A stretch of DNA of 64,000 nt from Candidatus Versatilivoraceae bacterium (GTDB taxonomy: Bacteria > Acidobacteriota > Terriglobia > Versatilivoradales > Versatilivoraceae): assembly GCA_965197895.1 (NCBI GenBank), contig OZ240232.1, forward strand, positions 330,318 through 394,317, written 5' to 3'. Both the position numbers and the translations under genes were made by a program. Shown here piece after piece: positions 29,914 through 59,077 of this stretch (position 1 is its first letter; each line of letters begins with the position of its first letter). The notes under the pieces are model-generated. The model was not told the origin of the DNA, did not search any database, and saw only the letters and a program-made list of their open reading frames with translations.

Positions 29914-31905
29914 AGAGGCACGTGGGCTGTAGCGCTTTCCGGCTGCCAGTTGGGTCCGAACGTGAGCCTTCCCGACTGTGCCGGGACCACTCGATGTGCC
30001 GGGTATCCTTCGAAGTGGCGCCATCGCGGTGAAAGACGGTTTCCGGGAGCCGAACCGGCACCATTCGAACGCAGGAAACCCTTCGGTTGCTCGAACCGTC
30101 TCGATTGCCTCAGGGGCGATGACCCGAATCGAGGGGAGCCGACGCTATCCGGTATCGGCGAAGGGAACCGCGCCGACCAGCGAGCCCATCCGATCCCGGC
30201 GTCCCGCCCGTGCCTGGGCCAGGGCCATCATCACCGTCATCGCCAGCCCGACCCGTGCCGTCATCCGGCTCCGGCCGCGCAGGAAGTGCCGCTCGAACCC
30301 GAAGTCGTTGTCGAGGCGGCTGTAGATCCGTTCCAGCGCACTGCGACCCCGGTAGCCCCGCTTCCAGGACGGGCTGCCGTAGGGGGTCGGAGTGAAGAGG
30401 CGCCGATCCTGGGTGGCCAGGGGAATCCGTACGATGCGGCCGAAAGCCCCCGCCTGCGAGCCTGCCGCCCGGTAACAGCTTTCCCGGCCGGCACAGCCAT
30501 ACCCATAGGCCGCCGCCGGGCAGCGGTACTTCAGCCTCCCCCGCTCCGCCTCAAAGCCCTGGAAGGCCATCGGTCGCTGGGTGCCGGTTTCAGGGCAGAG
30601 GCAGCCCACTTCCCCCTTTTCGGTATGCACGATGGTATCGGCCCGGCCCGGATACAGCGGTCGCGTGATCCCTTGGGTGGGGTCGTAGCCCGGCTCCTTC
30701 TTCTCCTGCTTCCACAACTCCCGGGGTTCGATCAAGGGACGGATGCCGTAGTCGTCCCATAACTTCGCCTTGACCGGCCCGCTGTCGAGGCCGCGGTCCG
30801 CGCTGAAGTCCCGGCACCGCTTCGCCAGTTCCGGCGTCTCCTCGAACAACTCCTCCGTCATCGCCTCCAGTTGTTTCACCTCCGATTGCGAGGCCCGCCT
30901 CACCCGGCAGGCCACCGGAATCTCGTAGCGGGTGTCGGCGATCAGGTGCACCCGATAGCCGAACCAGGTCTTGATCTTCCTCCACAGCTTCCCCGTCTTG
31001 CCGTCCACCCCCCGCGTCTCGTGCTTCCCCCAGTCCGCATCCGGATCCGAGGTCTTCCCCCTCTTCCTCCCCGTCGAATGGCTCTCCACCGCCTTCCCGT
31101 CGTACCCCAGATGCTCCCCGAACCCCTCCACCTCCTCCATCAGTTGCTCCCGCACGTGCCGCATCATCGCTGCAATCCCTCCCTGCTTCTCCTCCTGCTT
31201 GACCACCGCACTGAGAAACCGCGAGAAGTTCCAGGCCGACGGCACCCCATCCCCTCTCGGTACCTCCTTCAACACCACCTTCGGTCCCTCGGCACCCACC
31301 ACCACCTCCCGCTTCGGCCGCCTCCGCGGTCCCAGCCGATCAAACCCGCACACCTCCAGAAGCGCCGGGTTGCGCCTCAGTTCCCGCAACAGCGATTGTA
31401 TCGAGACATGCTGGAAGACGATCCCCGCCACCAGCGCCCGCCACATCGCCCGGATCGGATAGTCGTCCCGGCCCCGGCCCCGACGCTGCTCCAACGCCGC
31501 CAGCAGCTCTTCGTCCGGCAGTGCCTTCAGAACCATCTCCAGACGCTCCAGTTCAGGCCGGCGTTCCACATCGCTCCACCAAAACAACCCACGGTTATGA
31601 TTCACCACCTCGCTTGCTCCTGGTCGCGGATCTCAGAGTTAACTTCAATACATTCTGTCACATAGAGACCCACCCAGCCAGCAGTTTCCCGCTGGCAGCG
31701 GCTCAGGCTGACCTCTGTTTGCCTCCTCCCCACCCCCTCCAATGATTCCCGTACCCTCTCGTCCGACCTTTGGGGTGAAATCCGGCCATTCCCCCATCCA
31801 CGCCCTTCCAAACCCTTGATAATCCTGAGTGTCCTTGGGGTAAAATGTTTTGCACCCCTTGAAAACCTTGGCTTTTCAAGGGGTTCCCAACAGCGCACAC
31901 GCCTC
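29914..31905 (-). mobile_element. IS element copy 2 (IS5/IS1182-like), apparently intact, inverted relative to copy 1
   Basis: The outer inverted repeat CAGCGCACACGCCTC (31891-31905) has 1 mismatch. The inner end is a degenerate repeat gagaggcacgtgggctg at about 29914. Its 5' leader (31609-31905) and 3' tail (29914-30144) are colinear with copy 1. Confidence 0.7.
30145..31608 (-). CDS. DDE transposase, IS5 family / IS1182-like (DUF772-like N-terminus, Cys-rich C-terminus)
   Basis: 487 aa with a YRVHLIADTRYEIP DDE core. The C-terminal cysteines (CLCPETG..RCPAAAYGYGCAGRESC) match the IS1182-group pattern. The family assignment is from memory. Confidence 0.7.
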   Translation of the reverse strand: MVNHNRGLFWWSDVERRPELERLEMVLKALPDEELLAALEQRRGRGRDDYPIRAMWRALVAGIVFQHVSIQSLLRELRRNPALLEVCGFDRLGPRRRPKREVVVGAEGPKVVLKEVPRGDGVPSAWNFSRFLSAVVKQEEKQGGIAAMMRHVREQLMEEVEGFGEHLGYDGKAVESHSTGRKRGKTSDPDADWGKHETRGVDGKTGKLWRKIKTWFGYRVHLIADTRYEIPVACRVRRASQSEVKQLEAMTEELFEETPELAKRCRDFSADRGLDSGPVKAKLWDDYGIRPLIEPRELWKQEKKEPGYDPTQGITRPLYPGRADTIVHTEKGEVGCLCPETGTQRPMAFQGFEAERGRLKYRCPAAAYGYGCAGRESCYRAAGSQAGAFGRIVRIPLATQDRRLFTPTPYGSPSWKRGYRGRSALERIYSRLDNDFGFERHFLRGRSRMTARVGLAMTVMMALAQARAGRRDRMGSLVGAVPFADTG

Positions 31906-39462: not shown

Positions 39463-40104
39463 CCGCACGACTTTTAGTCCGGCCCTGCCGTCCGGTTCGG
39501 GAGTCCAGGGACCATGGCTTTCAGGCAAGGGCCGCCCCCGCCCCCCACGACGGGGCGGATCATTCGAGGGTGAAACATCTGAAAGGTTGAGGCCTGTGAG
39601 AGGTTCCACAAGCAGCCGCGAAGCGGCGGCAGCAAATAGCCGTGGGCGTCAGCCCATGGTTCAGGGTCGCCCCCCGCCCCGAGCCGCGAAGGCGGCGGCA
39701 CTGACCGGCGTCGAAAAAGGCACTCCTCATTGGGCGTGAGAGGTTGGACCCAACCAGACCACTGATCTTGGCGATCCTGTTCATCCATGGGAGAAGATGA
39801 TTCAACATGGATAGACAGGATGGGCAGGATAAGGAGGATTGCAGCCAGGCAAGCGATTGCCAGCCCGGTGTCGGGTTTTGCAGGATTAGGGTGGATCGTG
39901 GGAATCCCCCCACTAGCCACTAGCCACTGCCTTTTTGTTTCAGGCAAGTGGGTTGTCAGCCAAGACAGAGCTCTCAAACCGAATTCAGGCAAACGATTGA
40001 GGCAAGCTCTCCCAACCGACGTGTTGTTTTTCACGTCGATATGGATGCGTTCTTTGTCTCGGTCGAAGAGCTGTTTCGTCCCGATTTTTGTAGGAGAAGT
40101 TGGC

Positions 40105-51495: not shown

Positions 51496-52494
51496 ATGTT
51501 CCGCTCTCCTTTGGTCATCCTGATGGGTTCTCTATTCGTCAACGCCGGCCAGGTTCTGGCCGGCGACACCGTCATGGGTCAATGGGAAGGAGTCCTTCGT
51601 ATCGTCGATGGTGCGGAACGAGGCATTGAAGCCCAGGTTGTGGCGGAGGGCGGCGACCGCTACCGCGCGGTCATGAGGTTGGCGACGGAAGGGGATCGGA
51701 CCGGGGGTGAATCGACCGGTCGCCGAGAAGGGAAGGCGGTTGTGTTCTCGGGCTCGCTCGATCTGGGACGGGGATCCGGTGGTGTTTGTCAACTTCAAGG
51801 GGAGATTGATGACCGAGGTTTTGAAGGTGAATGCGTGGCTGCCGCCTCCAAGGCCCGGTTTTCCCTGAAAAAGGTGCAGCCGCGGCCACCGCAACTGGGT
51901 GCCAAGCCTCCAAAGGGGGCGGTAGCGCTTCTCGACGGTTCAACCCTGGAGGGCTGGATTCATCCCGACGGGCAGGCCGCCCGCTGGACCCTGCGAGGCG
52001 ATGGCAGTATGCAAGTCACCCGGGGGAATATTCTCACCCGACGGTCCTTCGGTGACGTCCGTATCCATCTCGAGTTTCGCACGCCCCTGATGCCGGAAGC
52101 CCGGGGCCAAGCCCGCGGAAATAGTGGTGTCTATGTTCAGGGTCGCTACGAGGTTCAGGTTCTGGACAGCTTCGGTTTAGAGCCGATGGACAACGGGTGC
52201 GGGGCCATTTACCGGGTTGCCAGTCCTCGGGTAAACGCCTCATTGCCCCCGCTGCAGTGGCAGACTTATGAGATCATTTTCAGAGCACCGCGCTTCGATC
52301 CGAACGGCACCAAGATTGGAAATGCCGAGATCAGCGTCTGGCATAACGGTCAGTTGATTCACGACCGGCAAGACCTCCCGGGCGTAAGCCGGGGAGGCGT
52401 CAGCGATGACGAAAGCGACCGGGGGCCCCTGTTCCTCCAGGACCACCGCGACCCCGTGCGCTACCGCAATATCTGGATCCTACCCTTGGACTGA
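51496..52494 (+). CDS. DUF1080 (3-keto-disaccharide hydrolase-like / LamG-like) domain protein, secreted
   Basis: The C-terminal ..GNSGVYVQGRYEVQVLDSFG..YRNIWILPLD is the DUF1080 signature. Confidence 0.6.
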   Translation: MFRSPLVILMGSLFVNAGQVLAGDTVMGQWEGVLRIVDGAERGIEAQVVAEGGDRYRAVMRLATEGDRTGGESTGRREGKAVVFSGSLDLGRGSGGVCQLQGEIDDRGFEGECVAAASKARFSLKKVQPRPPQLGAKPPKGAVALLDGSTLEGWIHPDGQAARWTLRGDGSMQVTRGNILTRRSFGDVRIHLEFRTPLMPEARGQARGNSGVYVQGRYEVQVLDSFGLEPMDNGCGAIYRVASPRVNASLPPLQWQTYEIIFRAPRFDPNGTKIGNAEISVWHNGQLIHDRQDLPGVSRGGVSDDESDRGPLFLQDHRDPVRYRNIWILPLD

Positions 52495-52617
52495 GCCGTT
52501 CCGGGAAATCTGTGATTCCCTCAAAGTAGTTCGCCTTCCACCATGAGGTTTGTCTTGGGCAACGCCGCTTGCGTTTGAAATCGGCCGAGGCGGCAAGCTT
52601 GTGAGTGGAATCGAGGC

Positions 52618-53331
52618 TTACGACTCAAAGCGGATCAAGCCGAATCGGCTGGGGATGTGGAAGGAGTCGCCCAGCGTTGGGCTCCAGGCAAGCAGGTGCC
52701 GCTGCTCGATGTCCCCGACTCCGTCACAACGATAGAGGTTGATCCGCCATTCCATGCCGGGGAGGATGCTGGAGACGCCCATCGAGCGGGCGGGGATTCC
52801 CATCTCGCAGGTCCATTCCTGCTTGTCCTTGTCGACCCGCGTTGCGTGGGCAAAGCCGGAGTTCCAATCGGCATCCAATACGGGATCGCGGTCAAGGTCA
52901 ATGGCCAGGTCGATCCATTGATTATTGGGCGCCACTTCAAATTCCCAGTAAGTGTTCATTCGCTGTGAAAAAGGGTTGATGAAAGCCTCCACCACGTCCC
53001 GATCCCACAACAACCAGCGCTCCCGGCTGGAATCCTCACCTTCGTAGCAGTGCAACTCGGAGAACTGGCACCAGTAGGCTAGATACAGTTGGGAACTGGT
53101 GTAGCCGAGTGCCACTCGGGTATTCACGCCCGGAATGGTCGTGCCCGGCTTGCGGAAGTGGTCCAGGGTTAACCGGGAGACCCCGCACCAAGCCGGTTTG
53201 CTGAGGTCTGCGTCAGGAATGAAGTCCTCAGAGAGGGAGGGGACGACGGCCTGATGAGTACTGAGATAGGATGCTTGCGGATTCATTTGAGCGACAGGCT
53301 TCCACGCGGGCGCTGCCTGGTTCCAAAGCAA
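52618..53331 (-). CDS. Carbohydrate-binding family 9-like (DOMON-like) domain protein
   Basis: The pattern ..RDVVEAFINP..YWEFEVAPNNQWIDLAID..WNSGFA..RINLYRCD..LLAWSPT..HIPSRFGLIRFE resembles CBM9-like domains. Confidence 0.45.
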   Translation of the reverse strand: MLWNQAAPAWKPVAQMNPQASYLSTHQAVVPSLSEDFIPDADLSKPAWCGVSRLTLDHFRKPGTTIPGVNTRVALGYTSSQLYLAYWCQFSELHCYEGEDSSRERWLLWDRDVVEAFINPFSQRMNTYWEFEVAPNNQWIDLAIDLDRDPVLDADWNSGFAHATRVDKDKQEWTCEMGIPARSMGVSSILPGMEWRINLYRCDGVGDIEQRHLLAWSPTLGDSFHIPSRFGLIRFES

Positions 53332-53368
53332 TCTTCAGGAGAGTCGCCGGTACGCCAACGACAGGTGG

Positions 53369-54406
53369 TCAGGCAAACTCGGTTAACTTCACCGTTCGCT
53401 TTTCACTGGCCGACCGGTCAGACGCAAAAACGACTCGATGAGTCTCAAAGGCCGTCTCAAAATCGGTGAGTGGCATGGGTTTACCTTTTTCTATACTGTC
53501 AACGAAGGCTTGAAACTGGGGCTGATAGGGATGATCCACGACATCGCCGGAGTCGATCAATGCGGTCTCTAGAACGCTCCAACGAGCCTTGGTCATTCCC
53601 CTGAGCTTTTGGCTGTAGATGCGATTGTCGAGCAAACTCCCTTCGCTACCTACCAAGTGGATGTGAAAGTAGTAGGGCTGCAGGCAATCCACGATGGAGG
53701 CAACTTTGCCGATCTTTCCATCTTTGAACCTCAGCAAGGTAACCGTGCTGGTGTCGTATTCATAGGGTTCAAAGAGTCGGCTGCCGGATTTTGCACTGTA
53801 GGTCGTGACTTCCTCGACTTCAGAGTCCATGAAATAGAGCAAGCCGTCCAGGGCATGACAACCGGCTGTCAGCAAGCTGCTGCCTCCGAAGTCCTTTTTA
53901 ACGTTCCAACCATATTGCCCATACCAGGGTCCTATCCCATGGTAGTAATCGACTTCGGCATAATGGATTTCGCCCAGCAGGCCATCGCCGATGCAAGAAT
54001 GGATCAAGTCGAAGTGTTGACTGAAGCGGCATTCGAAACAGACACAGGTCTGAATCTGCGCCTCCCGAATAGCGGCTCTCATCGCCAGGGCATCTGCATA
54101 AGAGAGGCAAATAGGCTTCTCAATGATGAGGTGCTTGCCGGCCCTGGCGGCGTCGATGGCTTGTTGGGCGTGCTGCGGGTGCGGTGTACAGATATCGATT
54201 GCATCGATATCGGGATCGGCCAACATCGCCTCGTAGCGGGTAAAGCCTCGTAGCGGGATGCCGTAGTCCCGGGTCAGCGCGGCTTCATCGAGTTGGCGCC
54301 GTGAGCAGACAGCCGTTACCTCGGCTCCGGCCACGGCTTTGAAGGCGTCGATGTGAGCGCCGGCCACCCAGCCGAGACCAACAATTCCGACTCGCAGATC
54401 ACTCAC
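53369..54406 (-). CDS. Gfo/Idh/MocA-family oxidoreductase
   Basis: GTG start at 54406, after an AAGGAGAG Shine-Dalgarno. [16 protein letters not shown] is the Rossmann motif, with an EKP motif. Confidence 0.75.
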
Positions 54407-54473
54407 TTGTCTTCTCTCCTTTCCTGGGGAGGGGCACCCGCATTCCCGTTTCCTGGTGTCCTCGCTCCGGCTG

Positions 54474-56939
54474 CTAAGGGTTGCTTTCCTGGATGATTCG
54501 GTCGTAGACGAGGCGCGCCCGCTGATAGGCGGCAGCCGCTTGCTCACGTTCCTCGGGACGGATTCGGTCGCGCTTCATTTTCCAGCACTGATCCACGGCC
54601 CGGCGACACCATTCGGCACTCCGCCGCGAGGCTCGAACGGGTTTTCCATCGACCTGAACGAAGATCGGGTTGGTGTGTGAGCTGGGGTAGATGCGCAAGG
54701 CAAGCCAACTCGACTTTCGAATTGGAACTTGGAAGCTCAAGTCGGTCCACTGGCCATCGCCCTCGACGACTTTTCTGGCTACCGGTTCGCCGTTGACAAT
54801 CAGCTCGACCGGGACCTGACGGCTCTTGCCCAGGCGTGCCCGCTCGATATGCCAGTAGGGAGGCCGATCAGACCGTCTGGAAGCGATAATGGCCCCAACC
54901 TCGTCTTGTTGGGGCGGCAAATAGGCAATGACCCTGGCTTTAATCTCGACCGTTTGAGGTCCGGACAGGTTCAACTCACTCTGGTGGGTGCCCAGTTCCA
55001 GCCCGTTGGCGGAGAGGTCGATGATGTGGGAGGCCCCGTCTGAAACATAGCTGCGCCCCGATCGAATTTGCTCCATGTACCGGTCAAAATCCAGCGATCC
55101 ATCCAGCTTGGCATAGCTTCTGGCCATTCCCACACGGTCGTCGAAAATGCAGGGGAAATCCGTCTCTCCACTCAGGCGCGTGCGAAAGCCGCTGTTCAAG
55201 ACGTGATACCAGATGTTGAGTTCCCAGGGTGCGGGCGTGTCGCCGGCCGAGAAGAAATCGACGGCATCCTGGGTCACGGTGACGATGTATTCGTTGGCTC
55301 CAATGCCGTCGAATTTGGGCATGACGTAGTTGGGGAGCGCCTCGGTGGGCTCCATGGGTTCCAAACCCCATCCCGAGTGGGCATAACCGACCACGGCATC
55401 CTGCTGCTTGGCCCACTTCAGAATTGGCAGCGTCCAGCTCGGCCACTCCTCAACCTTGCGGGTCCCCGGATAGTCGTCCTCTTTCAGGCGGAGCAGGCAG
55501 ACGTGACCGGCATGGGAGGAGGGAAAGCCTGAGACCTCCACGTCGTAACGCAGCAGGTTCTGCCGGTTGGACAGCGGATGGACTTTGCCGGTGAAGTAGC
55601 TTTTCTGGTAATACCAACAGGGTCCCCAGCTCAGATTGCAGGCGATATTCAGATCCTCTCCTTGTGCCTGACGCCACATGTGCTCCGGCCGGACGCCCTC
55701 TTCCGGGCTCTCGTAATGACTACAGCCCGCAGCGTGCACGTGATGGTCGGCGCTGTACCAACCCAATTTCGCCATGTGAACCCAACGGGTGAGCTGGAGA
55801 TTGACTTCATGGACCTTCTTCCCAGCGGGCACCCTGAAGCGTTTCGTCTGGGGAACGTACTCGGGCCCCCGCGTCACGGTGATTTCATACTCCCCCGCCG
55901 GAAGGAACACGTGCTCCCCGTCGGCCCGGTAGATTTGGGGATGAAAGAAGAAATCCGGGAATTCATCCACAGCCGCCAGGCGCCGTGAAGGCAGCGGGTA
56001 AATGCCTGCCAGCCGTTTTGCTTTGGAGGAGGCGGGTAAGTCCGACGCGCCTCGTTCCTCCCAGGTTTGGCGGGCTGCCAACGCCAGCCGGTAGTCCTTG
56101 GGTAGGGGCGGCCTGCCCGGCGGAGCCAGTCCGCTGATCCGAGTGGCCTCAGGAGTGTCCACGATTCTTTCGATCCCGTCGGTAATGACCAAAGAGGCCA
56201 TTGGAGCCGGTTTACCGTCATGATCCCTGATCCTGAACACCACCTTGGCGGCTGCCTGGCAGTCGAACAGGATGTCGACGGCACTGCGGAAACCGATGTC
56301 CTGGGTTCCCTGGCCAACGTGGAAACCGATTTTAGCTTCCTGGCGTCCGGTTTCCTTGGTGTAGATCTGGAGCACGGCATACTCGAGCTCGATTCCCGAA
56401 AGGTGCTTTAACAGCGGCCGTCGCCGATACATGTAGAGTTCCAGAAAGCGGTTGGCCACTGCACCGGGAGTGAGGACGTTTTGCTGTTTGGCCTGCTTGG
56501 CACCGGTTGACCGGTGCAGGATGGGCTCCGCGTTGGGGCTCTCTGCTTCCAACTCGGTCTTGACCATGGCTTCGTTGTGAACCTTGACGAGAAAACTCTT
56601 CCAGCCGTTCTGCACCAATACCGGCTGGGCCGGACCACGCAGAACCTTCACCCGTGCCTCCGGGTTGATCACCACCATGGCCAGGCAATAGGGGTCCAGG
56701 ATTTCCTGGATCCTTTGAGTCGTCCTCGGGCCGGGGGCGTCATTCCTCAGAGCTTGGAGTTGCCGGGAATCCGCGGCTGACAGGCCGCTTCCCAAAAAGG
56801 TCAGCGCCTCATCCAGACGGAGCGCTTGGGCCAGCAGGGGTTGCGCTTCCACGCCCGTGATTTGAGGGAGGTCATTGGAGTAGATCGTCCCGGATAGCGT
56901 GAGTGAGGCCAGAATGAGGCTGAGGAATCGGAATTTCAT
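54474..56939 (-). CDS. PHP-domain metallohydrolase, CehA/McbA-like, secreted
   Basis: Start [10 protein letters not shown] gives a signal peptide. [15 protein letters not shown] is the PHP His cluster. The protein is large and multidomain. Confidence 0.55.
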
Positions 56940-57358
56940 GATTTTCTCCCGGCAGGTTTCCTGCTTGGTTTTTGGTTCTGTCCCGGAACGCGGCAGAGTA
57001 TGCCACCCCCCCGAGCGTCTCCCCGTGTCGTGGCTTCCCGGAGCCAATCAAGCCAACCGCAATCGAAGTCAGGGGAGACCCGATCATGGGGTCCCTGGAG
57101 TCCATGGCTGCGCTCCAAGGGGGATCCTGAACGGGCTTTCTCCTGAGCCTATCACAACCTGACCCGGTGGGAAGAGTTCCCCAGCCTCGAGCTTTCCGAA
57201 ATCGGAACGAACTGGGGCAGAAAAGCCAGTAACCGTCCCGAGTGCGGTCCCAATCGAGGATCAGTATGCCCGCGGTTTGGAAGGTATCGCTGGCCTCTTT
57301 CAGCCGGCTGACGGACGTCCCGATCCGTCGAATGCAGTCTCACAGGGATCCTACCGCA

Positions 57359-58408
57359 TTAAACCCTCCAACGCAGGCAGGTGCCCGCTCCGGTCATGGT
57401 GACGATGGTATCGTCCTCCAGAACCACACTGGAAGCATAGCCGGTACCATAGCCCTTGATCGATGACCCCAGCACGGTAAACCCCGGCCGAGTGAGGTGA
57501 TAGACTTTCGCACTCCAGGTGCGACCCTCGTCGTGGCTGATCCTTGCCAGAACTTGGGCCTCCTCGCGGGGATAACGGTGATCGGTGGTCAGAATCAGTG
57601 TTCCGTCCGACAACTGGGATAATTCCCCGTGAGCCTGTCCCAGAGCCAGGTCGGTTGGCCCCTGAGGCGTCCGGCTTACCGGCCGGAAGTTGATCCAAGT
57701 GAGCCCGTCGTCGTCGGAATCGGCCAGGTAGACTCGCTTGGATGGGTGGAGCCCCTGCTCATGCAAGGAGGGGCGGTCGCGGAGCTGCCGGTCCAACAAC
57801 TCGGCAGACCAGAACGCAGGCTGGTAACGGATCGCTGCGATCAGCCGTCCGGAGTGTAGTCGCAGGAGAGTCGGCTCGGCAGACCAATCGGGCAAAGGAG
57901 TTCGCTCCCCCCAACTTAGACCGCCGTCGGTGGACCTCAGAACATAAGTGGCGGTGTAGGGAACCGCCGTCCAAGGCTGCAAAGACTCTTCAGCCGCTTG
58001 CCTGATCTTCCGCTGCTCGGCCGAAGTCGCGCCCAGCCGCTGGAGCCAGAGGACGGTCCCGTCCGGCAGCTCGGTCATCCGGTTCGAACAGCCTCCAATC
58101 GAAGGAAAGGGTGACTTGGTGATTCTGACCGGTCCTTGCCAGCTCTTGCCGCCGTCTCTCAATATCCCGAATGAGTCACTTCTCAGCATCCAGCGATAGT
58201 CAAAAAAAAGCCAACGGACCGAGTCCCGCGCCAGGTTGTGGTCGAAAAACTGCCACCAATCCAAGCGTTTCTGGCACCAAGTCCGTCCCTCATCGCTGGA
58301 GGACAGCAGGATGCTTTCCAACCCCGGACCCTCTGTAGAGAAAGCGGCGTAGAGCGTGCCGTCTCGGGTCCTGCCGATGGGAGCCCCTCGTCCGAAGGGA
58401 ACCTCCAC
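57359..58408 (-). CDS. BNR-repeat / sialidase-like protein (GH33-like fold). The frame continues upstream through an in-frame TGA to an ATG at 58648 that encodes a Tat signal.
   Basis: Four SxDxGxTW Asp-boxes (SSDEGRTW, STDGGLSW, SDDDGLTW, SHDEGRTW). Upstream, in the same frame, ATG 58648 with a CAGGAGG Shine-Dalgarno encodes MEITEPIDHFRDASPGIWARKTHRRGFLAAGIAG, then TGA at 58544-58546, then LAATTGSC.. Confidence 0.6.
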   Translation of the reverse strand: MEVPFGRGAPIGRTRDGTLYAAFSTEGPGLESILLSSSDEGRTWCQKRLDWWQFFDHNLARDSVRWLFFDYRWMLRSDSFGILRDGGKSWQGPVRITKSPFPSIGGCSNRMTELPDGTVLWLQRLGATSAEQRKIRQAAEESLQPWTAVPYTATYVLRSTDGGLSWGERTPLPDWSAEPTLLRLHSGRLIAAIRYQPAFWSAELLDRQLRDRPSLHEQGLHPSKRVYLADSDDDGLTWINFRPVSRTPQGPTDLALGQAHGELSQLSDGTLILTTDHRYPREEAQVLARISHDEGRTWSAKVYHLTRPGFTVLGSSIKGYGTGYASSVVLEDDTIVTMTGAGTCLRWRV

Positions 58409-59077
58409 AAACTGAGCCGGGACGGTCCGGACTCTCTTCCCATCGACAGTGACTTCTATTTGACCCTCTTTTGGAACGGCGCCCGATGGGGGTTCTGCTG
58501 CCCCTGAAGATTTCCGGCGGCAGGACCCTGTCGTGGCGGCGAGTCAGCCCGCGATGCCGGCGGCCAGGAAGCCACGCCGATGGGTTTTGCGTGCCCATAT
58601 TCCTGGTGATGCATCCCTGAAGTGGTCGATCGGCTCTGTGATTTCCATGGCATCCTCCTGTTGGCAGGTCGAGGGAGTTTTTCCGGGCAAGCCTATCACT
58701 CGTCGGCCAGGATTTGTGCTGAAAGTTGACCACCTGGCACAAAACCAGGGCGACCGGAAATGCGAATCACGCGATCGACATTGAAACGGTCGGGACCCTT
58801 CAGAGGATTGTTCCGGCGAAGGGCCGGATGTCCAACTTCGGTAGTAGGGCCACCTTCCGGCTGCCGGGGGTGGATTGTCAACGCTGCTTGAGATAGATTA
58901 TTTACCGGGTCGACTCGTGGCCGTGGCTGGAAATGGACTGGAACCGGAACCCGCTTCCATCCTGTCTCTCAAGTGAATCGAAGCCAACCAACGGCACCGA
59001 AGGGGGTTGTGCCGGATTCCGGGGATCAACCGCGCAAACCCAATCCGGTGGCTTGGTTCGAAAGGAGAAGTGACTTC

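Follow-up and report, generated by a model that had tools for sequence, protein, structure and literature searches.

An in-frame TGA and a short deletion very probably mark a young sialidase-like pseudogene common to every sampled strain of one acidobacterial species

Does a stop codon inside a predicted export signal mark a dead gene, a leaky or recoded codon, or an error in the data? The question is raised by a BNR/Asp-box gene on the minus strand of a 64,000-nucleotide stretch of acidobacterial DNA (hereafter the window), where a frame that begins at ATG 58648-58646 is interrupted by an in-frame TGA at 58546-58544 and then runs to TAA at 57361-57359. Translation of this minus-strand frame from ATG 58648 gives MEITEPIDHFRDASPGIWARKTHRRGFLAAGIAG-TGA-LAATTGSC..., and an earlier sequence-only reading of the locus had left a very recent pseudogene, a sequencing or assembly error and a recoded TGA standing side by side as possible explanations. 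The comparisons described below indicate that the gene is very probably a young unitary pseudogene, and that its inactivating lesions are common to every sampled strain of one acidobacterial species.

We delimited the parts of the locus by comparison with orthologous genes (Table 1). Apart from two lesions, the premature stop and a deletion, the frame is intact over 394 codons. The remark of the earlier reading that this frame is open back to an ATG with a good Shine-Dalgarno sequence was correct, AGGAGG being present at 58659-58654. Codons 1-34 comprise the start ATG, a long n-region, a twin-arginine motif (T-H-R-R-G-F-L) and the first part of a hydrophobic region, and translation from this Shine-Dalgarno sequence and ATG 58648 would yield only a 34-aa peptide in this genome. 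Past the TGA, the rest of the hydrophobic region reads LAATTGS, and the portion of the N-terminal beta-hairpin that precedes GTG 58408 reads IEVTVDGKRVRTVPAQF; codons 36-80 contain no in-frame ATG, GTG or TTG able to start their translation. A tblastn search revealed no second copy of the gene in the window.

Table 1. Features of the disrupted gene, with positions in the window.
Feature	Position	Strand	Remarks
Shine-Dalgarno AGGAGG	58654..58659	-	5 bases upstream of the ancestral ATG; also in orthologue L004
Codons 1-34 of the ancestral gene	58547..58648	-	Aligned position by position with orthologues of 459 aa
Premature stop TGA (codon 35), followed by C	58544..58546	-	TGG (Trp) followed by C in orthologues
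Codons 36-80	58409..58543	-	Rest of the hydrophobic region, basic c-region, linker and most of the N-terminal beta-hairpin
GTG, first canonical restart codon past the TGA	58406..58408	-	Start picked by gene callers; 349-aa ORF
Deletion junction, single GACGGCG copy	58150..58156	-	Comparison with orthologues; identical in seven assemblies
Remaining BNR/Asp-box sialidase-fold beta-propeller CDS	57362..58405	-	Frame open; four canonical Asp-boxes; Pfam BNR_2
Normal stop TAA	57359..57361	-	Position same as in orthologues

At least 17 intact orthologues of 459 aa, at 73-81% identity, are found in Acidobacteriota (Candidatus Versatilivorator and relatives), all beginning at the same Met and sharing the RRxFL signal-like N-terminus. 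Six complete proteins of 459 aa (P0001 and P0003-P0007) align over the full length of the read-through product, with W in place of the stop; in a seventh close relative (P0008) the C-terminus is frameshifted. At the DNA level, codon 35 is TGA in the window and in three further loci (L001, L002 and L003) and TGG in three others (L004-L006), and ten additional species-level orthologues from GTDB, each 459 codons long, have TGG-C there and are free of the deletion. TGG-C stands at codon 35 in every orthologue locus whose DNA was read, and all 13 orthologues compared from other species have Trp at this position. Since the orthologues carry a Trp codon, the window stop is a single G-to-A nonsense mutation, a transition; the Gly or Ser codon that had been predicted at this site was wrong. 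The order of the genes around this one is conserved among relatives, which supports orthology. When a metagenome collection was scanned with an exact pattern allowing TGR at the stop, no match was obtained, and a protein-based scan of the same collection returned two loci, neither from this species.

The same comparison bears on whether the upstream frame belongs to the gene at all. That it might be fortuitous was considered and rejected, as the orthologues share the Met and the Shine-Dalgarno sequence and align across the whole 80-residue upstream part. Orthologues devoid of a signal, which the earlier reading had named as the sign of a fortuitous frame, do exist, but only in a distant clade: these homologues of 385 aa (Poribacteria, Latescibacterota; 66-67% identity) lack a signal peptide, and stop codons lie upstream of them, whereas the close orthologues carry the signal-like N-terminus.

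Alignment with the orthologues also uncovered a second lesion, an in-frame deletion of 90 bp (30 codons). In the orthologues, two 7-bp direct repeats, GACGGCG, flank the segment lost in the window, DGALLWAFRQAGADCKSGGLEAESYVIRSQ. The deleted segment corresponds to residues 165-194 and, in an AF2 model of an orthologue, to strands E168-174 and E188-193 of a single blade. One propeller blade thereby loses two of its four strands, central ones in the orthologue model, and the Asp-box at the deletion junction goes with them. In a model of the window protein the affected blade is left without any strands, so the models suggest that the deletion would wreck this blade. The 90-bp deletion had not been remarked on in the sequence-only reading.

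What kind of protein the gene encoded can be judged from the family. Pfam BNR_2 and BNR both score above their cut-offs; for BNR_2 (PF13088) the window protein reaches 48.6 bits (cut-off 31.4) and the orthologue P0001 62.9 bits. The four Asp-boxes claimed earlier were found as four canonical boxes (S.D.G..W) in the window protein, and five are present in the orthologues. The AF2 model of P0001 (pLDDT 82.4, pTM 0.83) is a sialidase-like propeller with a conserved N-terminal hairpin (strands E60-68 and E71-82, pLDDT about 96), and its best Foldseek matches are the sialidases 8FEB, 1EUT and 8DU5 (E 1e-14 to 1e-12, probability 1.0). The orthologue model shares the fold of the GH33-type sialidase/BNR six-bladed propellers of Porphyromonas gingivalis (8FEB) and Micromonospora viridifaciens (1EUT), but its identity to these solved sialidases is only 13-18%, with a TM-score of about 0.5. 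The NCBIfam neuraminidase models score only 15-18 bits against an equivalog cut-off of 900, and no FRIP motif was seen on reading of the sequence. The gene comes first in a conserved carbohydrate-type cluster, followed by genes for a CehA/McbA-family metallohydrolase, a GFO/IDH/MocA oxidoreductase, a CBM9-like protein and a 3-keto-disaccharide hydrolase; these neighbours point to a glycoside-oxidation pathway rather than to sialic acid use. DUF1501/PSD1 genes are also among the neighbours in the window and had suggested a planctomycete origin; this was abandoned, as the related loci and an Acido-Lenti-1 RNA detected by Rfam point to Acidobacteriota.

The earlier reading had seen in the N-terminus a textbook Tat signal cut by a stop. 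In the window, T-H-R-R-G-F-L is followed by 18 uncharged residues (counting Trp at the stop) and then RRK. The arginine pair is found in nine of the ten GTDB orthologues, the remaining one having RQ. Motif and layout thus bore the description out: like Tat signal peptides, the region has a long n-region, T-x-R-R-x-F-L, a Gly/Ala/Thr-rich h-region of 18 residues and a basic c-region, and this layout is kept in all the 459-aa orthologues examined, the first 48 residues being disordered in the model. The word textbook fared less well, since searches with the first 80 residues of the window protein and of an orthologue brought up no Tat-signal HMM (Pfam at E<=10, NCBIfam at E<=1), a null that weighs little as counter-evidence given the short models and the HMMER filters. 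Unlike intact Tat signals, that of the window is split by a stop, and one intact orthologue has RQ, not RR. Judged by its sequence, the N-terminus is probably a Tat signal. A lipoprotein signal, with TGSC as lipobox, was also considered and rejected: its Cys is private to this species, and the orthologues have Ser or Gly at this position.

Both lesions are present in all the sampled strains. Seven assemblies, obtained from seven different samples of the same species, agree exactly in the TGA and in the deletion junction; they are 99.3-99.9% identical to one another (2-11 differences over about 1.5 kb), and 18 CDS positions in total vary among them. The contig names of three of these assemblies record coverages of 35x, 21x and 45x.

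We therefore favour the option of a recent pseudogene, to which the intact orthologues, all with TGG at codon 35 and an N-terminal RRxFL signal-like region, gave their support. The ancestral gene encoded a sialidase-fold (BNR/Asp-box) propeller of 459 aa with what is probably an N-terminal signal peptide of twin-arginine type. Two lesions arose in the lineage of this one species: a G-to-A transition made a TGA of the TGG codon for Trp35, within the hydrophobic core of that signal, and an event of the replication-slippage or microhomology-mediated type removed the 90 bp between the 7-bp direct repeats. A product started at GTG 58408, the first in-frame start past the stop, would lack both the signal and the N-terminal hairpin, and we infer that no functional protein is made from the gene. 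A single premature stop at a conserved sense codon, an independent short-repeat deletion and intact neighbours are what bacterial unitary pseudogenes display; constraint on the gene may likewise be starting to relax. Unlike older ones, this pseudogene would be very young, with a dN/dS of about 0.2 against the sister species and neither frameshifts nor further stops; unlike segregating pseudogenes, the window allele is found in all seven sampled strains, with no intact allele alongside.

Substitution rates are consistent with such a young age. Compared with its closest orthologue, the window gene has a pairwise dN/dS of 0.195 overall and of 0.157 in the propeller, values no different from those for pairs of intact orthologues (0.16-0.29). 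A pairwise value still near 0.2 indicates that the inactivation is recent; dN/dS by itself is no demonstration of decay. In a three-taxon comparison, the branch dN/dS is about 0.20 for the window and 0.18 for L004. Private amino-acid changes number 25-30 in the window lineage against 9-19 in P0001, but the idea of a faster protein evolution in the window lineage was dropped, because synonymous distances are longer in the same proportion.

The alternative that holds up best, though we consider it unlikely, is that the gene is a hypomorph with a leaky stop: the near-cognate tRNA-Trp(CCA) would occasionally insert Trp at the UGA, and the gene would be functional and under purifying selection. Leaky UGA codons read by near-cognate tRNA-Trp are exemplified by the A1 read-through protein of phage Q-beta and by the UGA-C at prfB. 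As in these systems, the window gene has UGA-C, here where Trp is ancestral, so that read-through would restore the wild-type residue. Unlike them, its stop is unconserved across species, has no stimulatory structure downstream (z = -1.0) and lies within a signal peptide, not at the end of a functional ORF, in a gene with a second structural lesion. Misreading of UGA by tRNA-Trp is documented in E. coli and B. subtilis, as is inefficient termination at UGA-C in bacteria (PMC5289835), and UGA-reading tRNA-Trp variants with 4-bp anticodon stems occur in diverse bacteria (PMC13092985). Against this possibility, the very same allele is without two blade strands and one Asp-box, the stop occurs in one species only with TGG invariant elsewhere, and TGA, including TGA-C, is the normal stop throughout the window.

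Polymorphism among the strains speaks on both sides. The variable positions are skewed to synonymous changes, 11 against 7 nonsynonymous where the neutral expectation is 12.4 nonsynonymous out of 18, as a functional hypomorph would predict. This excess has P = 0.007 if all SNPs are taken as independent, but it hangs on two tight clusters of third-position SNPs, which look like recombination imports: P becomes 0.054 when each cluster is counted once and 0.16 when both are dropped. With P ranging from 0.007 to 0.16 according to the treatment of the clusters, some residual or recent constraint may remain. In addition, nonsynonymous SNPs among four strains (2 in about 959 sites) are sparser than SNPs in intergenic DNA. 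On the other side, at four of the seven nonsynonymous polymorphisms (D177 to N or T, P202L, R244L and S395A) the residue affected does not vary among 13 orthologous species; this is the share expected of unconstrained changes, as 63% of the sites are invariant. Overall SNP density is 0.0085 per bp in the gene and 0.0076 in intergenic DNA (8 SNPs in 1047 bp), and the gene carries four times as many SNPs per bp as the intact gene downstream of it. We give marginally less credit still to the idea that the TGG-to-TGA change is an expression-lowering allele, leaving a trickle of exportable protein and either kept by purifying selection or favoured as a turn-down. Such an allele would explain the intact downstream frame and the synonymous excess.

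A further step down in likelihood comes a shorter cytoplasmic protein of 349 aa, started at GTG 58408 and functional without export. The corresponding reading frame is uninterrupted and figures among the gene calls of public assemblies, and the Poribacteria and Latescibacterota homologues show that signal-less members of the family exist. These homologues, however, start about 25 residues upstream of the equivalent of GTG 58408 and keep the hairpin IxVTxDGxxVRxVPAxF, which the 349-aa product is without. A Shine-Dalgarno-like sequence was looked for upstream of GTG 58408 and none is present, and the 30-aa blade deletion affects the 349-aa product as well.

We see next to no chance that the TGA is recoded, be it as selenocysteine or because UGA stands for Trp or Gly throughout the genome. 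In its favour we can cite only the coincidence that UGA means Trp in genetic code 4. More ORFs of the window end in TGA than in any other stop: of 44 long non-overlapping ORFs it terminates 24, in six cases as TGA-C. Among the syntenic genes, those for creatininase, GFO and 3-keto-hydrolase end in TGA where the C-terminus is preserved from species to species, and the others are free of internal stops. The premature TGA is confined to one species, the GC content is about 0.6, and the orthologues have Trp, not Cys or Sec, where selenocysteine would have to be. The earlier expectation that no SECIS-like hairpin would be found was borne out: a 91-nt stretch that spans the TGA and continues beyond it is not folded more stably than its shuffled versions (z = -1.0), 32 of 200 shuffles folding at least as well. 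Neither a tRNA-Sec nor a suppressor tRNA was found in the window, and an Rfam search of the window gave nothing pointing to recoding. Programmed read-through is no better supported, the TGA and its context not being conserved (TGG in 13/13 other species) and no significant structure lying downstream. Equally negligible is a sequencing or assembly error, a prior concern for any single-base change for which no supporting evidence was found, since seven independent assemblies carry the identical TGA and junction yet differ at 18 CDS positions, and what is altered is a single base, not the length of a homopolymer.

A young unitary pseudogene thus remains the reading we prefer, and it has consequences for annotation. 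The public 349-aa 'BNR' calls (P0002, P0122 and P0123) would represent the tail of a disrupted 459-aa gene; a fourth gene caller gives 320 aa for the same locus (P0121). The locus is best flagged as a pseudogene and should not be counted as a sialidase-like enzyme of the organism. A literature search by genus name returned no match. The finding has no bearing on open questions of the genetic code or of protein export. Rather, it would provide a clean and datable instance of early gene decay in an uncultured acidobacterium, in which the rest of a conserved gene cluster is intact.

We re-read the frame of the BNR gene from the DNA, and the coordinates and sequence given in the sequence-only reading were confirmed.

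Features of the interrupted BNR reading frame (window positions)
Feature	Position	Strand	Remark
Shine-Dalgarno AGGAGG	58659-58654	minus	five bases 5' of ATG
Start codon ATG	58648-58646	minus	opens frame MEITEPIDHFRDASPGIWARKTHRRGFLAAGIAG
In-frame TGA, after MEITEPIDHFRDASPGIWARKTHRRGFLAAGIAG	58546-58544	minus	codon 35
Frame past TGA, LAATTGSCRRK...	runs to TAA 57361-57359	minus	same frame
GTG, first ATG/GTG/TTG 3' of TGA	58408	minus	start of 349-aa ORF

With the read-through product as query, the protein collection yielded six 459-aa proteins (P0001, P0003-P0007), which cover the query end to end, and the 469-aa P0008, at 73-81% identity. The aligned orthologues start at the same initial Met as the window gene, have the RRGFL motif and the GGWLAATT core in common, and carry a Trp exactly at the window's stop position. 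Codon 35 and its neighbour read TGG CTC in the closest orthologue (L004) and TGA CTC in the window; the Shine-Dalgarno and start codon are conserved between the two. When one genome from each GTDB species was scanned, ten full-length orthologous loci (L012-L021) emerged, all from Acidobacteriota (Candidatus Versatilivorator and Terriglobia/Acidobacteriota MAGs; L012 and L004 come from a single chromosome). Each of the ten spans 459 codons, with codon 35 reading TGG and the next base C; in the alignment of 13 orthologues, Trp35 never varies. A fortuitous upstream frame, missing from orthologues, had been considered; the 459-aa orthologues share the start Met and a signal-like N-terminus, and the sense codon, predicted to be Gly or Ser, is Trp in all of them. 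The upstream frame thus belongs to the ancestral gene, and one G-to-A nonsense mutation turned a conserved Trp codon into the stop. Separately, P0008, from a 47-kb ENA contig, is frameshifted at its C-terminus and leaves the family alignment from ...SSIKGVW, which means either an indel from assembly or a further broken copy.

The window N-terminus combines T-H-R-R-G-F-L, a long n-region, an 18-residue uncharged h-region and a basic c-region, a layout conserved in the 459-aa orthologues examined. RR is found in nine of the ten GTDB orthologues and RQ in the P0001 genome (L004/L012, OZ244053.1). Motif and region layout fit the Tat signal proposed earlier, but the Tat-signal profiles of Pfam and NCBIfam reported no match at permissive thresholds; the assignment is a putative one, made from the motif. 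A lipobox at TGSC was rejected, its Cys being private to the window's species.

The TGA is only part of the damage: alignment to the orthologues revealed a deletion that the sequence-only reading, correct on the stop, had overlooked. Between FGILR and DGGKSW, 30 codons present in every orthologue are missing from the window gene. The missing 90 bp are bounded in orthologues by two GACGGCG copies, one of which the window retains (58156-58150), the mark of slippage or of a microhomology-mediated deletion. AlphaFold models P0001 (60-sequence alignment, mean pLDDT 82.4, pTM 0.83) with strands E168-174 and E188-193 at the deleted residues 165-194; they are the inner pair in a blade of four strands, whose Asp-box also loses its Ser to the deletion. 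A model of the window protein retains no strand in the region (local pLDDT 68-75). Because AlphaFold is unreliable for judging mutation effects, we can only infer that the deletion would destroy the blade. The best structural matches of the P0001 model were bacterial and eukaryotic sialidases (E ~1e-14, TM-score ~0.5, 13-18% identity), and the Pfam BNR_2 score exceeds the cut-off.

Termination at codon 35 leaves a peptide of 34 residues. The downstream GTG is not preceded by a Shine-Dalgarno, and its product would have neither the signal nor the conserved hairpin at the N-terminus (E60-68 and E71-82 in the P0001 model), which signal-less homologues of Poribacteria and Latescibacterota keep. 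These homologues (L022, L023, L025; all MAGs) have in-frame stops immediately 5' of their start codons and are 66-67% identical to the acidobacterial proteins; identity this high across phyla suggests horizontal transfer, as well as a cytoplasmic form of the protein. Another Poribacteria MAG (L038, OZ244950.1, 1501-1665) holds a remnant in which the N-terminal hairpin is fused straight to the C-terminal ...SVVLEDDT segment; most of the propeller is deleted there, in a separate, independent decay of the family.

Some function might be left if a near-cognate tRNA-Trp read the TGA, putting the ancestral Trp back. In bacteria, UGA followed by C terminates inefficiently and tRNA-Trp misreads UGA (PMC5289835), and UGA-reading tRNA-Trp variants are present in various bacteria (PMC13092985). 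The blade deletion would persist in any read-through product; we give this scenario only a slim chance. A recoded TGA is very unlikely: TGA ends 24 of the 44 long non-overlapping ORFs of the window (six as TGA-C); it also ends the creatininase, GFO/IDH/MocA and 3-keto-hydrolase genes, at C-termini conserved across species; homologues have Trp, not Cys; and the 91-nt stretch spanning and following the TGA has no better fold than shuffled sequences do (z = -1.0), in line with the expectation that a SECIS-like hairpin would be missing. The suggested check for further in-frame TGA found no internal stop in the other syntenic genes; the window contains no tRNA-Sec or suppressor tRNA, and Rfam gave no match at the gene's locus.

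The 349-aa ORF is called in other public assemblies, identical or differing by one residue. We compared six of them with the window (ENA ERZ25067264, ERZ25072670, ERZ25072076; Logan ERR13605531, SRR27899016; JGI 3300047102): identity is 99.3-99.9% over 1.5 kb, with 18 variable CDS positions among the seven sequences. All seven share the TGA at codon 35 and an identical deletion junction, which rules out a sequencing or assembly error. Within the protein collection, no intact allele came nearer than 81% protein identity, and metagenome scans for more strains of the species found none.

Against L004, the window gene has a Nei-Gojobori dN/dS of 0.195 over its full length and 0.157 when restricted to the propeller, compared with 0.16-0.29 between intact orthologue pairs; three-taxon distances give branch values of ~0.20 (window) and 0.18 (L004). 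The gene therefore still worked during nearly all of its divergence from the sister species, which makes the lesions recent. Within the species, polymorphism comprises 11 synonymous and 7 nonsynonymous changes, 12.4 of 18 being expected nonsynonymous under a neutral model with matched mutation classes. The synonymous excess has P = 0.007 with all SNPs taken as independent, 0.054 counting each SNP cluster once and 0.16 without clusters. This ratio is hard to read, mainly because of the clusters at codons 288-289 and 291-293 (57770-57785: five third-position synonymous SNPs in 16 bp, four haplotypes in seven strains), which resemble short tracts of recombination or gene conversion. Of the seven nonsynonymous variants, four (D177 to N, then T; P202L; R244L, in an Asp-box; S395A) hit residues invariant in 13 orthologous species, the share expected for unconstrained changes as 63% of sites are invariant. 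Across four strains, the gene carries 0.0085 SNPs per bp, which matches the density in intergenic spacers (0.0076) and is four times the value for the intact gene downstream (0.002). We read this as relaxed constraint starting to show, the statistics being weak both ways.

Gene order around the BNR gene is conserved (PSD1 and DUF1501; adh_short and creatininase on the other strand; BNR; an 821-aa CehA/McbA-family metallohydrolase; GFO/IDH/MocA oxidoreductase; CBM9-like protein; 3-keto-disaccharide hydrolase), and the BNR genes are therefore true orthologues. The last four, downstream of BNR (window 51496-57047 and syntenic loci), are intact and under strong constraint (dN/dS 0.05-0.25), which points to a glycoside-oxidation pathway of which the window's species has lost only the BNR member. 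The genome of the closest intact orthologue (OZ244053.1, 264-1878 and 3556-7039) differs locally: adh_short is called at 228 aa (266 elsewhere), overlapping a creatininase extended to 313 aa (253-254 elsewhere), and a ~5.5 kb insert with NHL/fn3-repeat genes lies upstream of BNR. On a short-read scaffold (L007, 1124-4166) the PSD1-family gene, a single 1005-aa product in L006, is split into 882 and 140 aa, probably by a frameshift or assembly error. Elsewhere in the window, Rfam detected an Acido-Lenti-1 sRNA (39614-39659, minus; 47.3 bits, gathering threshold 37). This sRNA and the related loci jointly assign the window to Acidobacteriota (Candidatus Versatilivorator-like), against a planctomycete origin hinted at by the DUF1501/PSD1 genes. 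A 97-nt tRNA-Ile (anticodon AAT) called by ARAGORN at 30826-30922, minus, within the long ORF 30145-31608, is probably a false positive, because the Rfam gathering search placed no tRNA there.

Recent pseudogenization, the reading favoured from the start, is borne out by the conserved Trp35 and the lesions shared by all sampled strains. All seven strains, which belong to a single uncultured acidobacterial species, carry the gene as an ordinary pseudogene of recent origin, from a sialidase-fold family that is uncharacterised. For annotation, this means that the public 349-aa 'gene' is what is left of a 459-aa gene after its disruption.
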